In this document: in pieces, positions 1,650 to 59,094 of the stretch
Layout: the number at the start of each line of letters is the position of its first letter
Position numbering within the stretch: position 1 is the stretch's first letter
NCBI GenBank assembly: GCA_964541455.1
Contig: CAZIPS010000002.1
Location: 6,326-70,325, forward strand
Length of the DNA: 64,000 nucleotides
Origin: an uncultured Candidatus Saccharibacteria bacterium
GTDB taxonomy: Bacteria; Patescibacteriota; Minisyncoccia; Phycocordibacterales; JAKFXT01
Direction of reading: 5' to 3'
Notes under the pieces: model-generated
The model's database searches: none
The model's input: only the letters and a program-made list of their open reading frames with translations
What the model was told of the DNA's origin: nothing
Program-made: the position numbers and the translations under genes

Positions 1650-1678
1650 TTGCTAAAAGTAGTTTTTTGTTATATAAT
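1650..1678 (+). promoter_or_regulatory. sigma70-like promoter TTGCTA-N17-TATAAT upstream of GC-rich cassette 1
   Basis: TTGCTA at 1650-1655, 17-nt spacer, TATAAT at 1673-1678; spacer contains AGTTTTTTG; 22/29 positions identical to the module at 19618-19646. Confidence 0.4.
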
Positions 1679-1736
1679 AAAGTTCGGTAAGTTTTTTCGA
1701 TTAATTTTTTTGGCCTATGGGCCGAGGAGGTATGGG

Positions 1737-2039
1737 ATGTACAATCCCGACAATGCCAATCCCGACAGGGATACGACCCCGATTGCTCACGTGGAGCGGC
1801 TGGGGGACATCATCCACAGCATGCTCGGGGCGAGGATTGTGTATCGCCCTTGGCAGCTCGCAGGACCTTCTGAGCAGAACGAAATCCTGCTGCAGAAGGC
1901 AGGCGAAATCTGCGTGGTCACCGTGAAAGCGGGAGATCGCCGGCAGGCTTTCGAGGTGAGCAACCTCGGGGCGCAGTTCCTGGCGCTGGTGAAGGTCCTG
2001 AGCCACCAGACCGGGTTCGAGTACCGCGAAGTATTCTGA
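1737..2039 (+). CDS. hypothetical protein, GC-rich cassette 1 (100 aa, MYNPDNANPDRDTTPIAHVERLGDIIHSML...)
   Basis: ATG at 1737 lies 6 nt after GAGGAGG (1724-1730); about 60% GC in a roughly 40% GC neighbourhood; stop lies 16 nt before a hairpin terminator; no family recognised. Confidence 0.55.
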   Translation: MYNPDNANPDRDTTPIAHVERLGDIIHSMLGARIVYRPWQLAGPSEQNEILLQKAGEICVVTVKAGDRRQAFEVSNLGAQFLALVKVLSHQTGFEYREVF

Positions 2040-2054
2040 GGCGGTACTCGGGCG

Positions 2055-2086
2055 AGCGTGCGCAGCGATGCGCACGCTTTTTTTAT
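2055..2086 (+). terminator. intrinsic terminator of cassette 1
   Basis: 9-bp GC stem AGCGTGCGC/GCGCACGCT with 6-nt loop, followed by TTTTTTTATTT; the T-run overlaps the cysS stop codon. Confidence 0.6.
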
Positions 2087-8308: not shown

Positions 8309-8375
8309 TCCAACAGCTCACAAAAGTAAAAAGCCGGGGTTAGCCAGCTTTTTACTTTTGTGAGACGAGTTCTAT

Positions 8376-8864
8376 TTACATCCCCATGGTATTACCCATG
8401 TTGTTTGCCATCTTGCTATCCATGCTCATCATTTCTGAGCCATGCTTAGCAACAAGAAGAATACCACCAACAATAGCAAGATTCTTAAGTACGCTTACCC
8501 AGTCAACTTGGAAAGGAACGCCAGCTGGAGCAAGAACACTTGTGTGTACAAGTACGGTTGCAATCACTGTGAAGATAACGAGCATCCATGCACCAATGCG
8601 AGTTTTATATCCAACAAGAATAGAAAGCGCGCCACCAACTTCAAAAATAACGGCAAGTCCAGCCCATACCATACCAGGAAGCACATGGAGGGCTGTCCCT
8701 AGGTTAGCTGAAAGCTGACTAAAGCCAACGATTTTTTGCCAGCCGGCAAAAAGAAATACTATAGCAATAAAGACGCGAGCAATAACAGGAGCCCACATAT
8801 CTACTTTATTACTCCACATCTGCAACTTTTCCTTCATATAGATACAATAAAATTTACTATTCAA
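8376..8864 (-). CDS. DoxX-family membrane protein
   Basis: 162 aa; WAPVIARVFIAIVFLFAGWQKI and 4 TM helices typical of DoxX; the true start may be the internal Met at 8837; 14-bp-stem hairpin (8310-8349) downstream. Confidence 0.65.
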   Translation of the reverse strand: MNSKFYCIYMKEKLQMWSNKVDMWAPVIARVFIAIVFLFAGWQKIVGFSQLSANLGTALHVLPGMVWAGLAVIFEVGGALSILVGYKTRIGAWMLVIFTVIATVLVHTSVLAPAGVPFQVDWVSVLKNLAIVGGILLVAKHGSEMMSMDSKMANNMGNTMGM

Positions 8865-8992
8865 TAATGGAGCTATTATACTCTAAAATACGGTTTTTGG
8901 GGGGAGGGGAGTGGATAAGCAATAAAAGGCCACAGCACTGCTACTTTTGTCGGTAATGATTAGTTATAAGCATAGTATGTTTACAAGATGAG

Positions 8993-9397
8993 GTGGGTAT
9001 GTTTGAGCGTATACTGCTCTTAACGCGTTCTTTTGGGTTGGCAAAACCACTGGGTCTTGCGCTTGCGAGGTGGGGAGTTGATAGCCTTGTGTACATTAGC
9101 GACCCAGCACTCTTTGAACCCAGCATTCTTGAAACGGAGGATTTCACTACTATTATTGTCGGTAAAAGTTTTCAAGGGGACTGCGAGGATACGGCTAAAT
9201 GGGTTCGCCACATTCGTTCACAGTATGGGAACCCAATCATTGGGGTGAATGATGTACTTAGCGTGTTTGGTGACATGCGTTTGCTTCGGGTAGCGGGATG
9301 TAACTATCTTTCTCAAACCGCGGATCCCAACATGCAATTACGAGAAGTTCTGGACTTTGTTTGGGAGATTGAATCAAACCTTCCACTTCTGCGCTAG
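8993..9397 (+). CDS. hypothetical protein (possible degenerate receiver-like fold)
   Basis: 134 aa; alternating beta/alpha pattern (RILLLT, LVYISDP, TIIVGKS, IIGVND) but no phospho-acceptor Asp; no confident family. Confidence 0.45.
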   Translation: MGMFERILLLTRSFGLAKPLGLALARWGVDSLVYISDPALFEPSILETEDFTTIIVGKSFQGDCEDTAKWVRHIRSQYGNPIIGVNDVLSVFGDMRLLRVAGCNYLSQTADPNMQLREVLDFVWEIESNLPLLR

Positions 9398-9405
9398 CAT
9401 CTCTT

Positions 9406-9437
9406 ACCCCCGCCTTAGGCGGGGGTCGTCTTTTGTG
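9406..9437 (+). terminator. intrinsic terminator
   Basis: ACCCCCGCC-TTAG-GCGGGGGT stem-loop followed by CGTCTTTTGTG. Confidence 0.6.
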
Positions 9438-9464
9438 GGAACCTCTAATGGTATACTTTTCTTC

Positions 9465-9983
9465 ATGGCATATACAAAAAAGGTAGCAAAGAAGGGGCTA
9501 AAAGCTACAGGATATTGGCTCATGAAATCAGAGCCACATGAATACTCGTTTGAAGATTTAGAAAAGAGTAAAAACGGGGGGAGGTGGGATGGGGTACGGA
9601 ACTATCAGGCACGGAATTTCCTTCGGGATATGAAAATTGGCGATAAAGTCCTTTTTTACTACTCAAGCATAAAAATGCCCTTGATTGTGGGCACCGCCCT
9701 CATAAAAGGAGCTCCATACCCAGACCCCACACAGTTTGATAAAAAGAGCCCATATTATGACCCAAAAGCCACTAAGGAGCGTTTTATATGGGTTTCTAGG
9801 GATTTGGTACCTGTGGATAACTTTTTAAGCGCTAAGGAGGGTAGGGGAGTAACCCTTTCTGAACTCCGGACAAATAAGAAGCTTTCCGCTTTGAGGCTCC
9901 TAGCTCCTGGGAACCGGCTTTCGGTGATGCCGGTAAGCAAAGCCCACTATGAGGAGGTTTTGAGAATGGCCAAGGGCAAATAG
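9465..9983 (+). CDS. EVE (PUA-like) domain protein
   Basis: 172 aa from the internal Met; YWLMKSEPHEYSFEDL...WDGVRNYQARNFLRDMKIGDKVLFYYS is the EVE-domain signature; the upstream in-frame extension of the six-frame ORF has no homology. Confidence 0.75.
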   Translation: MAYTKKVAKKGLKATGYWLMKSEPHEYSFEDLEKSKNGGRWDGVRNYQARNFLRDMKIGDKVLFYYSSIKMPLIVGTALIKGAPYPDPTQFDKKSPYYDPKATKERFIWVSRDLVPVDNFLSAKEGRGVTLSELRTNKKLSALRLLAPGNRLSVMPVSKAHYEEVLRMAKGK

Positions 9984-10083
9984 CCCCCCCTCTTTTAGTT
10001 CGAACTCCTATCCAATAGTGGCCTTTAGGTGGATCGACTTGCCATATTTTTGATACTCCAGCTTAGTAAAAAAACGTGAAACC

Positions 10084-19617: not shown

Positions 19618-19646
19618 TTGCTAAAATGGATTTTTTGTCCTATAGT
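19618..19646 (+). promoter_or_regulatory. sigma70-like promoter TTGCTA-N17-TATAGT upstream of GC-rich cassette 3
   Basis: TTGCTAAAA-TGG-ATTTTTTGT-CC-TATAGT; same module as 1650-1678; a GGCGCGA/TCGCGCC hairpin at 19672-19694 lies in the 5'UTR. Confidence 0.4.
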
Positions 19647-19714
19647 GAAATTTGCTGTAAATTTTGGAAGGCGCGACCAATAAAATTCGCGCCACCACGG
19701 AAAAGGAGGGCCGC

Positions 19715-19978
19715 ATGGCCGCTGAAAAGGGCTGTTGTTGGACGCAGGGCGACAATCGTTGTGTTACGCTCTGCGAGGATGGGCACTGCCCAGGGGGGGA
19801 CGTTTGCGTAACGTCCCAGAGGCACAACGTCAACCACGTCGTTGACTACCCCTACCAGATCCTCCAAAGGGTCATGGAAGAGGGGCGGCCGGGACAGAAG
19901 ACGAAACACAGGCATACTGGGACGGGCGACGGAGACCGTTCTGTCTGGCAGGTGGGCGTCCCTGAAGCTTCATCGTGA
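19715..19978 (+). CDS. hypothetical Cys-rich small protein, GC-rich cassette 3 (87 aa, MAAEKGCCWTQGDNRCVTLCEDGHCPGGDVCVT...)
   Basis: ATG at 19715 lies 5 nt after AAGGAGG; 7 Cys in the first 32 residues; no signal peptide; GC-rich; terminator directly after the stop. Confidence 0.5.
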   Translation: MAAEKGCCWTQGDNRCVTLCEDGHCPGGDVCVTSQRHNVNHVVDYPYQILQRVMEEGRPGQKTKHRHTGTGDGDRSVWQVGVPEASS

Positions 19979-19993
19979 ATGCCCTTCGGGCAA

Positions 19994-20022
19994 GGCTGCG
20001 TACCCCGCAGCCTTTTTTATTA
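19994..20022 (+). terminator. intrinsic terminator of cassette 3
   Basis: GGCTGCG-TACCC-CGCAGCC followed by TTTTTTATTATTT; the T-run abuts the aspS stop codon. Confidence 0.6.
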
Positions 20023-41273: not shown

Positions 41274-41305
41274 AAGTAGTATAGCAAAATATAAAACCCG
41301 TCTTC
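41274..41305 (-). terminator. intrinsic terminator of cassette 4
   Basis: AACCCGTC-TTCAC-GACGGGTT hairpin followed (minus strand) by TTTTATATTTTGC. Confidence 0.55.
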
Positions 41306-41341
41306 ACGACGGGTTCCCTGCGGGGCAGGCAGCCTTGGCGC

Positions 41342-41509
41342 TTAGCTGGCGCGGGTATGCCTTTTCTGGTAGCCACCGTGAGGGGCAGGCAGCCCCCCTG
41401 GCGGCGGGTCGCGCGCCTTTGGCGCGGGCGTGGATTCAAACAGAAATACTGGCCCAGAGAATGCTACGTTAAGTACTGTCTCGATGAGGCAGTACATGAG
41501 ATGTTTCAT
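41342..41509 (-). CDS. hypothetical small protein, GC-rich cassette 4 (55 aa, MKHLMYCLIETVLNVAFSGPVFLFESTPAPKARDPPPGGLPAPHGGYQKRHTRAS)
   Basis: Below the ORF-track size cutoff; found by hand: minus-strand ATG at 41509 lies 7 nt after AGGAGG; hydrophobic N-terminal half, Pro/Gly-rich basic C-terminus; terminator 37 nt after the stop; contains the direct repeat GGGGCAGGCAGCC twice. Confidence 0.4.
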   Translation of the reverse strand: MKHLMYCLIETVLNVAFSGPVFLFESTPAPKARDPPPGGLPAPHGGYQKRHTRAS

Positions 41510-41544
41510 GGTCGCTGCCTCCTCTTGTTTGCAAAACTAAAAAA

Positions 41545-41573
41545 ATAGTAGCAAAAAACTAGTTCTTTTACAA
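41545..41573 (-). promoter_or_regulatory. sigma70-like promoter TTGTAA-N17-TACTAT (minus strand) upstream of cassette 4
   Basis: Minus-strand TTGTAA-AAGAACTAGTTTTTTGC-TACTAT; spacer again carries AGTTTTTTG; the -35 overlaps the ogt stop codon. Confidence 0.35.
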
Positions 41574-55046: not shown

Positions 55047-56144
55047 TTATATTTTAAATTCTATAACATCTCCATCTTTTACAATATATTCCTTTCCTTC
55101 AGTGCGAAGTATGCCCTTAGCCTTGGCTTCGGCGTAGGAACCAGCAGAAAGTAATTTGTCCCACTCTATAACTTCTGCGCGTATAAACTTTTCTTTAAAG
55201 TCGTTGTGTATAGCCGTTCCTGCAATAGGAGCAGTACTTCCTTTTTTTATTGTCCACGCTCGTGTCTCGTCTTCTCCTGTCGTGAAGTAGGTCATGAGAT
55301 TAAGGAGGGTGTAGCTCTTTTGTATAAGCTCATCGATACCGTCATTTTTATCATTAAGTTCTCCCTTAAACATTTCTTTCTCTTCGGGAGAAAAATCTTT
55401 GAGATCTTCTTGGATCTTGGCATCTATGACCACATATTCTGAGTGTTCAGCTTCTATGTAGTCGGTGAGCTGCTTAAAGCGTGCTAGGTCTGTCTCATCA
55501 AGATTTTTGGCTCCAGACTTCTTATTGAGTCCATAAATAATTGGCTTCTTAGAAAGAAGGTTCAATTGCTTTACGAAGGGGATCTCTTTTTCGGTTAGTT
55601 CGACTAATCGTGCGCTTTTCCCTGCATTAAGCGTCACTTTAATTCGCTGCAGCGCCCCCTCTTCAGTAATCGCGTCTTTATCCCCCTTTTTCACTTCTCG
55701 CACAAGGTTGCCTAGGCGTTTAGTAACAGTCTCAAGGTCAGCAAGAATAAGTTCAGTATTTATGATCTCTATATCGCGAATAGGATCTACTCCACCCTCA
55801 ACATGGATAACATTACTATCTTCGAAAATGCGCACCATGTGGAGTATGGCATCCGTCTCACGGATATTGGCTAGAAACTTATTTCCAAGTCCCTCGCCAG
55901 TCGAAGCTCCTTTTACAAGTCCTGCAATATCTACGAACTCAATAACTGCAGGAATAGTTTTCTTAGAATGTGAAAAGTTAGTTAACTTCTGTAGTCGCTC
56001 ATCGGGTACGGCAACAATGCCCACTGACGGATCAATGGTACAGAAGGGGTAGTTTTCTGCTGGCACTGACTTTTTAGTGAGTGCATTAAAAAGTGTGGAT
56101 TTCCCCACATTTGGTAGCCCCACAATTCCAATAGATAGTGACAT
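55047..56144 (-). CDS. ychF: ribosome-binding ATPase YchF
   Basis: 365 aa; G1 GLPNVGKST, YchF-specific NYPFCTIDP, C-terminal TGS domain. Confidence 0.9.
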   Translation of the reverse strand: MSLSIGIVGLPNVGKSTLFNALTKKSVPAENYPFCTIDPSVGIVAVPDERLQKLTNFSHSKKTIPAVIEFVDIAGLVKGASTGEGLGNKFLANIRETDAILHMVRIFEDSNVIHVEGGVDPIRDIEIINTELILADLETVTKRLGNLVREVKKGDKDAITEEGALQRIKVTLNAGKSARLVELTEKEIPFVKQLNLLSKKPIIYGLNKKSGAKNLDETDLARFKQLTDYIEAEHSEYVVIDAKIQEDLKDFSPEEKEMFKGELNDKNDGIDELIQKSYTLLNLMTYFTTGEDETRAWTIKKGSTAPIAGTAIHNDFKEKFIRAEVIEWDKLLSAGSYAEAKAKGILRTEGKEYIVKDGDVIEFKI

Positions 56145-56938
56145 TCGGCTATAATTATCTAATAATGACGAAAAAGCAAGAATATCTCTTATTTCTACTG
56201 TGGCCGTTTATCATTCTTGGCGTAAGTCTATTTCTTAAACCGGTTTTTTTTGAAACTATTTTTCTTTTCTATATTTTGCCAGCACTTTTTCTTTCATGGA
56301 AACTTCCTGGGCAAATAGTAAAAACTGCGCAATTGGCATTCGTTGGCTCCTTATTAGGGCTTATTTTCGATTATTCAGCGGAGGTTACTGCTACCTGGGT
56401 TTTCCCTCAAACGTATTTTTCATTTAAATTACTTGGTGTAACACCTATTGAAGTCCCACTTTGGTTTTTCTTTTGGACATATCTTGTAATTATGTTTTAT
56501 GAGTATTTCCTGGAACAAGATAAGAAGCGTGAAAAAATAGCATCATCGGCCAAAACCCTGTTATGGGTGGGCCTGGTAATCTATCTAACCTTTTACTTTC
56601 TAATTACGGTTTGGCGCATGCCGTTCGCTGTACCTTATACTTATCTCACCTTCGGTGTTTTGTACGCTTTTATCCCACTCGTATTAATGCTCTATTTTTA
56701 TCCTAAACTAAGAGCAAAGTTTTTAATTGTTATTGCTTACTTTTTCCTACATTCACTTGTCTACGAAATAGTTGGTCTCAGGTATGGTAGTTGGAGTTTT
56801 CCTGCCACAAGTCAATTTGTTGGTTGGATTCAATTATTTTCATTTAAATTTCCCTTTGAAGAGTTCTTTTTTTGGATAACAGTTGCTTCGGCAGGGATTC
56901 TTGCTTGGTATGAATTCTTTGACGACGATAGAAAGTAG
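56138..56938 (+). CDS. membrane protein with tandem lycopene-cyclase (CrtYcd-like) domains
   Basis: 266 aa; two repeats each with the PxE(E) motif (TPIEVPLWFFFW and FPFEEFFFW) and a TM pattern typical of CrtYcd. Confidence 0.55.
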   Translation: MTFGYNYLIMTKKQEYLLFLLWPFIILGVSLFLKPVFFETIFLFYILPALFLSWKLPGQIVKTAQLAFVGSLLGLIFDYSAEVTATWVFPQTYFSFKLLGVTPIEVPLWFFFWTYLVIMFYEYFLEQDKKREKIASSAKTLLWVGLVIYLTFYFLITVWRMPFAVPYTYLTFGVLYAFIPLVLMLYFYPKLRAKFLIVIAYFFLHSLVYEIVGLRYGSWSFPATSQFVGWIQLFSFKFPFEEFFFWITVASAGILAWYEFFDDDRK

Positions 56939-56941
56939 TTT

Positions 56942-56969
56942 ATAAAAAAACACCCCGCTTGCGCGGGGT
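56942..56969 (-). terminator. intrinsic terminator of cassette 5
   Basis: CCCCGC-TTGC-GCGGGG hairpin; on the minus strand it is followed by TTTTTTTATA. Confidence 0.55.
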
Positions 56970-56985
56970 AAGCGGGGGTGGCGGA

Positions 56986-57618
56986 TCAGCGTGGTGGCGC
57001 CAGAACAAGCCTGAGGAAATCCTCCATGGTATCGGCGATGAGGCAGCCCATCGCCTCAAGCTGCTCCTTGCTTGGAAAACCGCCGAGGCCGAACTGGGGT
57101 TGCCATTCGCACCCGACGATCACCTTGGGAGGAGGTTCGTCTTCGTTGTCCCGCAAGTTTTCCTTCCGAGCAAGCGCCGTCACGATGTGCAAAAAGTCAT
57201 CAGGGTTGGGCCGAAGGTGGTACTTGCCGGGGTTTTCGAAGTAGTGTGCTGTAAACCAGAAGAGAAAAGTATGGGAGAGTGCCAAGGAGAGCCGCACATT
57301 GCCTGCGTCCTCGATGTCCTTGCGCGGGTCATCATGAAGGAAAAAACTTCCCCGCTCGAGGCCAACGTCCACCACCCCCTTGAACCCAGACAGGGCCCGC
57401 AGGGCGTGATACTGCCATGGGACATGCGTTGGGTCATTGAGAGCATTGATCGGCCCACAAAGGGCCACGCTTCCAAATGCCGCCATGGCATGACTCGAAA
57501 CTAGGTCGAGCTCTTGATGCCTCCAGCGGTAGTGGCCAGTGAGATTGAGGCTCTGCCAGAACTTTTGTACAGCAGCAGCCTTTTCTTGCAACTCTTGCAA
57601 TTCTCCGGGAGCGAACAT
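56986..57618 (-). CDS. hypothetical protein, GC-rich cassette 5 (210 aa, MFAPGELQELQEKAAAVQKFWQSL...)
   Basis: Minus-strand ATG at 57618 preceded by AAGGAA; spans the whole 60%-GC island; terminator 17 nt after the stop; overlapping ORFs in other frames lack translation signals; no family recognised. Confidence 0.55.
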   Translation of the reverse strand: MFAPGELQELQEKAAAVQKFWQSLNLTGHYRWRHQELDLVSSHAMAAFGSVALCGPINALNDPTHVPWQYHALRALSGFKGVVDVGLERGSFFLHDDPRKDIEDAGNVRLSLALSHTFLFWFTAHYFENPGKYHLRPNPDDFLHIVTALARKENLRDNEDEPPPKVIVGCEWQPQFGLGGFPSKEQLEAMGCLIADTMEDFLRLVLAPPR

Positions 57619-57705
57619 CGCTAGTTTCCTTTCATGGGGTCATGGGGGTAATGGGGTACTAAAAGCGAGTTTCACAATAACACGCACTTTAATTTTATCA
57701 AAAAG

Positions 57706-58293
57706 TTAGATCCCTTTTTTAGCAAGCTTTGCAACCGTATCCCCTGCTTTAGTTCTTCCCTCGGGGGTAAGTTTTTTGATGTTTCCGATATAGGTTACGC
57801 GAGTAGGCCAGATGCCTGAAAACCAAAACACACCTTTGCGTATGTCGTGAGTAAAGTCCCCCATGAAAAGGCGGTCGAGTAATGGCGGATTATCCATAGT
57901 AACAATGATTCGCCCTGTACGACCCTTAAGTAATTTATCCCAAAGTCCAAGTAGGCTCCCCTTTCGCATACGAAAAGCAAATCCTGGAAGAAACATGCGA
58001 TCAAGAAGTCCTTTGAGAAGGGCGGGCATTGTGCTCCACCAATTGGGGTAGACCACTGTGATATGGTTTGCCCATTTAAAATCATTTTGTAACTGCAGTA
58101 GATCAGGTTCGAGTGCTTGGATTTCTTTATAACCTTTGTGAAGAATGGGGTCAAACTGGAGTTCACCGATGTTTACCCTTTTTACTTCATGACCCGCCTC
58201 CCTTGCTGCTTCTTCATACCGTGTCGCCAAGTAGCCGCACATAGTGTCCCAGTTACTGTGCCCGAGCAGCACCAAAATTTTTTTCTTTTGCAT
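57706..58293 (-). CDS. flavodoxin-fold NAD(P)H-dependent oxidoreductase (NQO1/MdaB-like)
   Basis: 195 aa; KILVLLGHSN...ITVVYPNWWSTMPALLKGLLDRMF typical of Flavodoxin_2. Confidence 0.7.
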   Translation of the reverse strand: MQKKKILVLLGHSNWDTMCGYLATRYEEAAREAGHEVKRVNIGELQFDPILHKGYKEIQALEPDLLQLQNDFKWANHITVVYPNWWSTMPALLKGLLDRMFLPGFAFRMRKGSLLGLWDKLLKGRTGRIIVTMDNPPLLDRLFMGDFTHDIRKGVFWFSGIWPTRVTYIGNIKKLTPEGRTKAGDTVAKLAKKGI

Positions 58294-58294
58294 G

Positions 58295-58522
58295 TTACTT
58301 TTGCATTAAAGAACTCAACTGCCCTTTGTATTCTTGGAGTACACTCATAACAGCCTGCATCTGTGGAGTACCTTGCTTCATTTTGGCTTCTACTTTTTTT
58401 CCAATTTCTGTAAAAAGTTCAGGATGCTGCTCTACTATATTTAAAATTTGTTCCTGCTGCGCTTCAGGAACTCCTTTCAGTTTACTTTTTATAAGACTGC
58501 GCATTAAGAAATTTTTTAGCAT
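58295..58522 (-). CDS. hypothetical small protein
   Basis: 75 aa; helical and charged; 1-nt gap to the oxidoreductase gene suggests co-transcription. Confidence 0.35.
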   Translation of the reverse strand: MLKNFLMRSLIKSKLKGVPEAQQEQILNIVEQHPELFTEIGKKVEAKMKQGTPQMQAVMSVLQEYKGQLSSLMQK

Positions 58523-58781: not shown

Positions 58782-58810
58782 TTGACTTTATATAATAAGT
58801 AAGTTATAAT
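58782..58810 (+). promoter_or_regulatory. consensus sigma70 promoter TTGACT-N17-TATAAT upstream of cassette 6
   Basis: TTGACT 58782-58787, 17-nt spacer, TATAAT 58805-58810; about 29 nt upstream of the cassette 6 ATG. Confidence 0.5.
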
Positions 58811-58839
58811 TATCCTCAGGCAATTTCAGGAGATTTTTT

Positions 58840-59055
58840 ATGGACTTTTGTCCAGCATGCGGTGGGCTTCTCAAGGAGACCCACCTCTCAGGAAACCTCT
58901 ACGGGTTTTCTCGGCGTGATGCATACAAGTGCAATGACTGCAGCCTTGTCTTGGCACGCGCTAACGGCGGGGCGGTACACTCGGTCACCCCCATCGCACC
59001 AAATGCGGTGGTGATCGAGGGGTACAAGTTGGGGCTCCGTCTCCCACAGGTTTAG
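58840..59055 (+). CDS. hypothetical zinc-ribbon small protein, GC-rich cassette 6 (71 aa)
   Basis: ATG at 58840 lies 7 nt after AGGAG; CPACGG ... CNDC (C-x2-C-x23-C-x2-C) zinc-ribbon pattern; GC-rich; terminator 6 nt after the stop. Confidence 0.55.
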   Translation: MDFCPACGGLLKETHLSGNLYGFSRRDAYKCNDCSLVLARANGGAVHSVTPIAPNAVVIEGYKLGLRLPQV

Positions 59056-59061
59056 TATCAC

Positions 59062-59094
59062 CCCGGGTCGGAAGACCCGGGTGTTTCTTTTTAT
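59062..59094 (+). terminator. intrinsic terminator of cassette 6
   Basis: CCCGGGTC-GGAA-GACCCGGG followed by TGTTTCTTTTTAT; overlaps the atpC stop codon. Confidence 0.6.

Follow-up and report, generated by a model that had tools for sequence, protein, structure and literature searches.

Flavodoxin_2 (PF02525) oxidoreductases are known from operons with an ancillary partner, for example KefF-KefC and those of the MdaB/NQO type. Many open reading frames (ORFs) of integron cassettes are orphans, and diversity-generating retroelements (DGRs) are common in bacteria of the candidate phyla radiation (CPR). Patescibacterial genomes carry many hypothetical proteins and islands gained by horizontal gene transfer (HGT) (PMC12455944). 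Here we analyzed a GC-rich island in a stretch of 64,000 nt (contig CAZIPS010000002.1, positions 6,326 to 70,325; hereafter the window) from an uncultured Candidatus Saccharibacteria bacterium. The island, at positions 56942-57640 of the window, holds a 210-codon ORF on the minus strand, termed orf210, which lies downstream of a gene of the Flavodoxin_2 type. We consider it fairly probable that orf210 is a genuine orphan gene of foreign composition, restricted to a single species-level lineage, which is accessory and was probably obtained by lateral transfer from an unsampled donor.

The systems with which orf210 can be compared resemble it to different extents. ORFan genes and 'genomic islets', including the HGT islands of Patescibacteria (PMC12455944), share with orf210 an atypical composition and codon usage, sharp boundaries, a variable insertion spot, a lack of homologues and a constraint weaker than that on the neighboring genes. 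Unlike such islets, orf210 is a single gene without a recombinase, a tRNA or flanking repeats, and no donor was found for it. As with the partner genes of Flavodoxin_2 oxidoreductases, orf210 directly follows a Flavodoxin_2 gene, on the same strand and with no terminator between the two, but its product is not a membrane protein, shows no similarity to KefC or another known partner, and is absent where relatives keep the Flavodoxin_2 gene. Like an integron cassette, it consists of a single promoter-proximal ORF and a short GC-rich palindrome behind it; in contrast to integron cassettes, it lacks an attC architecture and an array, the Pfam listings of its neighbors show no intI, and each GC-rich unit of the window appears to have its own promoter-like hexamers and Rho-independent terminator. 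Hypervariable immunity proteins such as SUKH/SMI1_KNR4 are similarly small, soluble and strain-restricted, and orf210 likewise has a mosaic allele with a hyperdivergent segment, but it has no match in Pfam, PADLOC or PHROGs and no adjacent toxin gene. The C-terminal '...ADTMEDFLRLVL' helix of orf210 bears some resemblance to the C-termini of SUKH proteins, a likeness for which there is no profile support.

Coding evidence, composition and predicted product of orf210

orf210 occurs in twelve contigs of independent assemblies (JGI, ENA, Logan and NCBI), in the same synteny and in several alleles. Against three of these alleles, the ratio of nonsynonymous to synonymous polymorphism per site (pN/pS) in the annotated frame was 0.23, 0.31 and 0.10. 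For L001 and L002 (L numbers designate the contigs and loci compared), none of the other five frames gave so low a ratio; for L004, a comparison with only 8 substitutions, one antisense frame came close with 0.19. Most other frames gave 0.5-1.9. The 31 variable sites were distributed over codon positions 3, 1 and 2 as 17, 9 and 5, respectively (binomial p=0.011). In addition, the GC contents of the three codon positions (GC1>GC2<GC3) are distributed as in an ordinary gene whose genome is richer in GC. To judge by these substitutions, orf210 is a genuine protein-coding gene that is translated in the annotated frame, and it is under purifying selection that is weaker than on the flavodoxin_2 neighbor (pN/pS of 0.10-0.31 vs 0.05-0.07). 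pS was lower in orf210 (0.04-0.09) than in flavodoxin_2 (0.13); divergence is patchy across the region, and thus no conclusion was drawn from this difference.

The preliminary description of the island, made from the letters alone, had identified the same 210-aa ORF at 56986-57618 of the minus strand together with its AAGGAA-N7-ATG start and its hairpin terminator, all of which we found as claimed. It had also pointed out that long ORFs open in several frames of the island, and indeed there is an antisense ORF of 181 aa besides ORFs of 103, 88 and 60 aa, none of them with a Shine-Dalgarno (SD) sequence or a family match. Its choice of frame agrees with the lowest pN/pS of six frames, with the excess of third-position changes and with a divergent allele segment that stays in frame, and no evidence favors another frame. 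The upstream gene, which it had called an NAD(P)H oxidoreductase gene, is of the Flavodoxin_2 type. The product of orf210 was rightly described as an unknown protein, with no match to a common enzyme family in our searches. As for the GC content, given as about 60%, the island is real and sharply bounded but the figure was slightly high.

The measured GC content is 56.8% for the island and 56.7% for orf210 itself, with a peak of 0.63 in 200-nt windows; the GC content of the window is 42.8%, and the island stands out within a Patescibacteria genome of that composition. Its edges are sharp, with the SD sequence at one end and the terminator at the other. GC1, GC2 and GC3 are 0.65, 0.40 and 0.65 in orf210 vs 0.53, 0.36 and 0.37 in the host genes, which places GC3 of orf210 more than 6 standard deviations from the host mean (0.37 ± 0.04). 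The encoded protein is low in Ile and Lys and high in Ala, Pro, His and Trp. Base composition at each of the three codon positions, together with this use of amino acids, points to a putative donor of ~57-60% GC. Around the island, only short repeats at chance level were found in place of flanking repeats or a target-site duplication, and no longer inverted repeat flanks orf210.

The orf210 protein (23.7 kDa, pI 5.6) contains neither a membrane-spanning hydrophobic segment nor a signal peptide, and is predicted to be soluble, cytoplasmic and mostly helical. The low-confidence models suggest an N-terminal helical part (residues ~1-127), a helix with an acidic/proline-rich linker (128-165) and a small C-terminal beta-alpha-beta-alpha part (166-206). 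Among 5.8 billion protein clusters, only its own 90% cluster was found, with 5 members that are 94-99% identical over the shared length, and a filter-only HMMER (phmmer) scan of 1.84 billion representative proteins returned the same single match. No match to orf210 was obtained in Pfam, NCBIfam, PHROGs, PADLOC or PDB (by sequence and profile), nor did either its N-terminal or its C-terminal half match a Pfam family at E<=10. No relative was detected in viral contigs, in metagenome contigs or in phages and plasmids (tblastn, blastn), and phmmer against all six-frame ORFs of the window and 80 related loci revealed no paralogue. The AlphaFold2 models reached a mean predicted local distance difference test score (pLDDT) of 37.0 with the 5-sequence alignment and 38.7 with the single sequence, and therefore no fold comparison is meaningful; the best Foldseek match of the single-sequence model in PDB (E of 3.1, probability of 0.03) is noise on an unusable model. 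The structural route recommended in the preliminary description (AlphaFold followed by Foldseek) thus had no outcome, with pLDDT of 37-39 and Foldseek probability of <=0.03.

Several family assignments were considered and rejected. Membership in Flavodoxin_2 (PF02525)/FMN_red has no Pfam match at E<=1 or E<=10, and only the upstream gene matches. The 'LHDD' motif recalls HD-domain phosphohydrolases, but His95 is replaced by Arg in L001, L002, L003 and L099, and Pfam gave no match. The Foldseek match to SAMHD1 has a probability of 0.03 on the unusable model. SUKH/SMI1_KNR4 (PF09346) was matched neither by the whole protein nor by residues 134-210 at E<=10 in Pfam, and no neighbor is toxin-like. 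Finally, no anti-phage defense or phage protein was indicated, with 0 families in PADLOC-DB and 0 in PHROGs.

Genomic site and alleles of orf210

In relatives, the gene order atpD-atpC-orf75-flavodoxin_2-ychF is recurrent. The gap between flavodoxin_2 and ychF spans 140-1700 bp of unrelated content in L025, L036, L038, L042, L044, L045 and L051, and these seven relatives contain neither orf210 nor the gene for a 257-aa membrane protein that lies beside it in the window; no sequence is shared among their variable gaps. The nearest relatives compared at the syntenic site share only 58-64% YchF identity with the window. Within the species, orf210 is present in every sampled contig in the same synteny, and no empty site was seen among the contigs found. 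As the relatives that keep orf75-flavodoxin_2 are all devoid of orf210, the gene was, from this comparison of loci, added at a variable spot and did not originally belong to the orf75-flavodoxin_2 unit.

The gaps of L025 and L051 contain small ORFs. GC-rich stretches of ~200 nt with a hairpin/T-run terminator at the end are located in L036 (7378-7610) and L042 (9794-10000). They have no ATG-start ORF of at least 50 aa, no Rfam match at the gathering threshold and no similarity to each other or to the window, and could be small RNA genes. L044, from a relative of 38.5% GC, carries a 50% GC insert (8315-10000) at the same spot as orf210, which codes for a protein of 288 aa, whose N-terminus resembles a signal peptide and which has collagen-like GPAGP repeats, and for a 180-aa membrane protein. 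This insert is further evidence that the flavodoxin_2-ychF site is a hot spot for foreign genes.

The alleles of orf210 differ most strongly in codons 128-163. In L003, a stretch of ~100 nt differs by ~35% from the window, and a 1-nt deletion shortens the product to 165 aa. L099 (run DRR685535) shares this divergent stretch but lacks the deletion, and its product is intact with 210 aa. Within these codons pS is 0.545 and pN 0.238 (pN/pS of 0.44), vs pS of 0.07-0.14 and pN of 0.014-0.023 outside. Because of this difference in pS, we read the patch as an old, separately evolved piece that was brought in by recombination and kept in frame under some constraint. By the same comparison, orf210 has at least two allele classes, which differ by the old in-frame mosaic segment over the linker region; in the low-confidence models the patch spans residues 139-151, predicted to be helical, and the linker of residues 152-165, which is acidic and rich in proline. 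The frameshift in L003 suggests that orf210 is dispensable, or else an assembly error. Since purifying selection is weaker than on its neighbor, allele classes exist and one allele is frameshifted, orf210 would be accessory and probably dispensable.

Many independent assemblies end inside or within ~120 nt of orf210 (the ends of L097 and L098, the start of L100, and L005-L012). These breaks are consistent with strain-level heterogeneity breaking the assembly graphs.

Explanations for orf210

GC-rich DNA has few stop codons, and orf210 might accordingly be an open stretch without function, that is, non-coding or decaying foreign DNA or an RNA gene. The absence of homologues and of a confident fold, the truncated allele, the chance of so long an open frame in shuffled sequence (given below) and the additional 181-aa antisense ORF would fit this explanation. 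We regard it as improbable, because the synonymous excess is specific to the annotated frame, the patch stays in frame at a pS of 0.55 with a pN/pS of 0.44, the codon-position profile is gene-like and the SD sequence is correctly spaced. Moreover, a structured non-coding RNA was rejected for the lack of an Rfam match in the island, at the gathering threshold or at E<=5, and for the ordinary folding energy of the orf210 transcript relative to shuffles (z=-0.98). That the real gene lies on the other strand or in another frame is scarcely credible. The 181-aa ORF (56959-57504, plus strand) does exist, but it starts with TTG inside the terminator hairpin and has no SD sequence, and the antisense and other-frame ORFs have no family matches. 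The pN/pS values of the three antisense frames, one of which is that of the 181-aa ORF, are 0.89-1.00 (frame 0), 0.19-0.54 (frame 1) and ~1.5-1.8 (frame 2), and none is below that of the annotated frame.

The main rival explanation accepts the gene and makes it a functional partner of the flavodoxin_2 oxidoreductase, as the third cistron of an orf75-flavodoxin_2-orf210 operon; the product may then serve as a subunit for substrate presentation, regulation or docking, in the way that KefF serves KefC. The genes are on the same strand, the 87-nt gap contains no terminator-like site, the first strong terminator comes after orf210, and every contig of the species has the three genes linked. This explanation is unlikely in our view, given that many relatives have kept the orf75-flavodoxin_2 pair and lack orf210, that the composition of orf210 is foreign and that of flavodoxin_2 native, that promoter-like hexamers are present in the spacer, that the two genes differ in constraint as given above, and that the flavodoxin_2 gene next to the frameshifted allele is intact. 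A mobile cassette of a defined system, either an integron cassette or a DGR target gene, is very improbable. The compact unit of one ORF and a hairpin, the occurrence of several such units in the window and the local hypervariable segment would suit it, but the units are dispersed among housekeeping genes without an array, and no sequence is common to the islands. At the 3' end there is a simple terminator hairpin of 8 bp and not an attC site (57-141 bp imperfect palindrome with RYYYAAC/GTTRRRY cores). orf210 is flanked by ychF, the membrane protein gene, flavodoxin_2 and the atp operon, and no recombinase domain appears in the Pfam listings of neighbors within ~5 kb, the whole window not having been scanned for integrases. 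The changes in the patch are not adenine-specific (16 of the 33 involve A), and the window holds no second copy of the patch that could serve as a template. The term 'cassette' used in the preliminary description is thus apt in the loose sense of a self-contained unit, but not in the sense of an integron cassette.

We therefore return to orf210 as a laterally acquired accessory gene. On the available sequences, it has the atypical composition, the absence from the syntenic site and the lack of homologues that characterize a laterally acquired orphan; its protein is new and without a family, but of a familiar kind. The gene lies between ychF and the native orf75-flavodoxin_2 pair, at a position whose content varies among Paceibacteria. 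There it constitutes a compact unit of an AT-rich leader with promoter-like hexamers, a moderate SD sequence, the ORF and its own hairpin/T7 terminator, and may be transcribed from its own promoter with possible read-through from flavodoxin_2. No terminator-like site was found in the 87-nt flavodoxin_2-orf210 spacer (40% GC), and therefore such read-through is possible. In the spacer there is also TGATAAAAT, an extended -10-like motif by consensus match only. The preliminary description held orf210 to be probably co-transcribed with the NQO1-like gene and the 75-aa ORF; from the arrangement of the genes, this is possible.

Some observations weigh against this explanation. The length of the ORF is only weakly significant, with an open frame of at least 217 codons in 2% of the dinucleotide shuffles of the island, and therefore it is the substitution pattern that carries the case for coding. 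The lack of a confident AlphaFold2 fold is also what one would expect of a spurious or non-folding product. Neither a donor nor a homologue was found, and lateral transfer is deduced from composition alone. A second GC-rich cassette of the window, I1, has been GC-rich since before the split of two species of ~75% nucleotide identity, and thus high GC need not mean recent transfer. The promoter-like sites in the region are no more common than in shuffles, and what we propose below about function is a guess without direct support, with no PADLOC, PHROG or Pfam match.

As to its role, we tentatively propose, at rather low probability, that the orf210 protein binds a partner in some antagonistic or strain-specific interaction, in which the hypervariable segment would form the contact surface, and that it is not an enzyme of the redox unit. 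The interaction could be of the immunity, anti-defense or host-interaction type. A bolder proposal, which we rate as doubtful, is that orf210 founds a new protein family with residues 128-163 as an interaction surface under long-term balancing or diversifying selection, and that it and the other GC-rich cassettes represent an effector-like class, which an episymbiotic Patescibacterium would keep GC-rich by selection or repeated exchange, for example to cope with its host or viruses. Taken singly, orf210 adds one hypothetical protein to a phylum that has them in abundance. It is nonetheless a clean true orphan, as 1.84 billion representative proteins gave nothing and yet the population data indicate coding and selection, and its old, in-frame hyperdivergent segment marks a candidate interaction surface in an organism that depends on contact with other cells.

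Feature coordinates, other GC-rich cassettes and neighboring genes

Table 1. Features of the orf210 region and of the other GC-rich islands, in window coordinates
Feature	Position	Strand	Remarks
orf210 CDS	56986..57618	-	210 codons, ATG start; supported by pN/pS, codon-position bias and GC1/2/3
SD-like AAGGAA	57626..57631	-	7 nt ahead of ATG; read directly from sequence
Intrinsic terminator of orf210	56944..56970 (hairpin 56970-56951)	-	TACCCCGC-GCAA-GCGGGGTG hairpin + T7; 8-bp stem with 6 GC pairs, 4-nt loop
Promoter-like TTGATA-16-(TG)TATTGT	57674..57701	-	in flavodoxin_2/orf210 spacer; putative, by consensus match only
17-nt indel polymorphism in orf210 5' leader	57641..57657	-	flanked by direct repeats of CCCCAT; the window and L004 have the 17 nt, deleted in L001-L003
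Hypervariable mosaic patch, codons 128-163	57130..57237	-	helix + acidic/Pro-rich linker; second allele class differs at 33/108 nt, in frame
flavodoxin_2, NAD(P)H oxidoreductase-type gene	57706..58293	-	native; upstream of orf210 on the same strand; Pfam PF02525 E=6.6e-29
orf75, conserved 75-aa ORF	58295..58522	-	precedes flavodoxin_2; 27-48% identity in many Paceibacteria loci near ychF
ychF GTPase gene	55047..56144	-	conserved anchor downstream of the variable spot
Gene for 257-aa multi-pass membrane protein	56165..56938	+	native composition; convergent with orf210
I1 cassette	1650-2082	+	promoter TTGCTA-17-TATAAT (1650-1678), GAGGAGG SD, ORF, hairpin/T-run terminator ~2055-2082
I2 cassette	19618-20018	+	promoter TTGCTA-17-TATAGT, AAGGAGG SD, terminator ~19992-20018
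I3 island	41290-41560	-	up to 78% GC (50-nt windows); AGGAGG, terminator ~41296-41316
I5 cassette	58782-59090	+	opposite strand to atp/orf75; promoter TTGACT-17-TATAAT (11/12 match), AGGAG SD, terminator 59062-59081

Besides the orf210 island, the window contains four more GC-rich orphan cassettes with a single ORF each, which are located among housekeeping genes at spacings of 2-37 kb (Table 1). No sequence is common to the five GC-rich islands except the promoter-like block of I1 and I2, which is ~73% identical over 48 nt. The I1 ORF (1737-2039) encodes an orphan of 100 aa with a GC3 of 0.77, and its homologues are found in this lineage only, at 94% and 83% identity. It occupies the same DnaB-CysS site in the sister genome GCA_964385825.1, which has ~75% nucleotide identity to the window (L094, 10001-10303). 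The sister copy, 83% identical in protein, has a GC3 of 0.69, and 33 of the 50 nucleotide differences are at third positions. Among codons for identical residues, 27% differ between the window and the sister in I1 vs 50% in DnaB and CysS. Such slow synonymous change could reflect either constraint on synonymous sites or later exchange between the lineages. As I1 has remained GC-rich across the split, the GC-rich cassettes of this lineage can be old and hold their composition, which is not predicted by simple recent transfer followed by amelioration.

The I2 ORF (19715-19978) encodes a Cys-rich protein of 87 aa (MAAEKGCCWTQGDNRCVTLCEDGHCPGG...) with no Pfam match. I3, which may be coding or an RNA, has a possible ORF of 55 aa (41342-41509) and an internal direct repeat, GGGGCAGGCAGCC, and gave no Rfam or Pfam match. 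The I5 ORF (58840-59055) encodes a zinc-ribbon-like protein (CxxC...CxxC) of 71 aa, of which the protein collection contains only identical copies. The collective pattern of GC-rich single-gene cassettes is more intriguing than orf210 alone. The cassettes are self-contained units of foreign composition scattered through a reduced genome. Should they have a common origin or purpose, they could reveal how new genes are gained and retained by ultra-small symbionts.

The housekeeping genes of the window encode DnaB, CysS, ScpA, an Asp/Asn-tRNA synthetase, a uracil-DNA glycosylase, YchF and ATP synthase subunits. For YchF, the identity to proteins of Patescibacteria/CPR metagenome-assembled genomes, which are labelled Paceibacterota, Nomurabacteria, Taylorbacteria or 'Saccharibacteria', does not exceed 69%. 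By this comparison, the window comes from a CPR bacterium of the Paceibacteria type. The flavodoxin_2 gene has a GC3 of 0.44 and matches NCBIfam NF007280 with 57 bits, under the cut-off of that model; its homologues in relatives are 43-55% identical and adjoin orf75 and ychF. The 257-aa membrane protein shows a weak two-part match to the TIGR03462 lycopene-cyclase domain (E=0.018, under the cut-off), and the start region of its gene overlaps the start of the divergent ychF. This gene is unusually conserved between strains, with a nucleotide divergence of ~1% vs 3.5% for flavodoxin_2.

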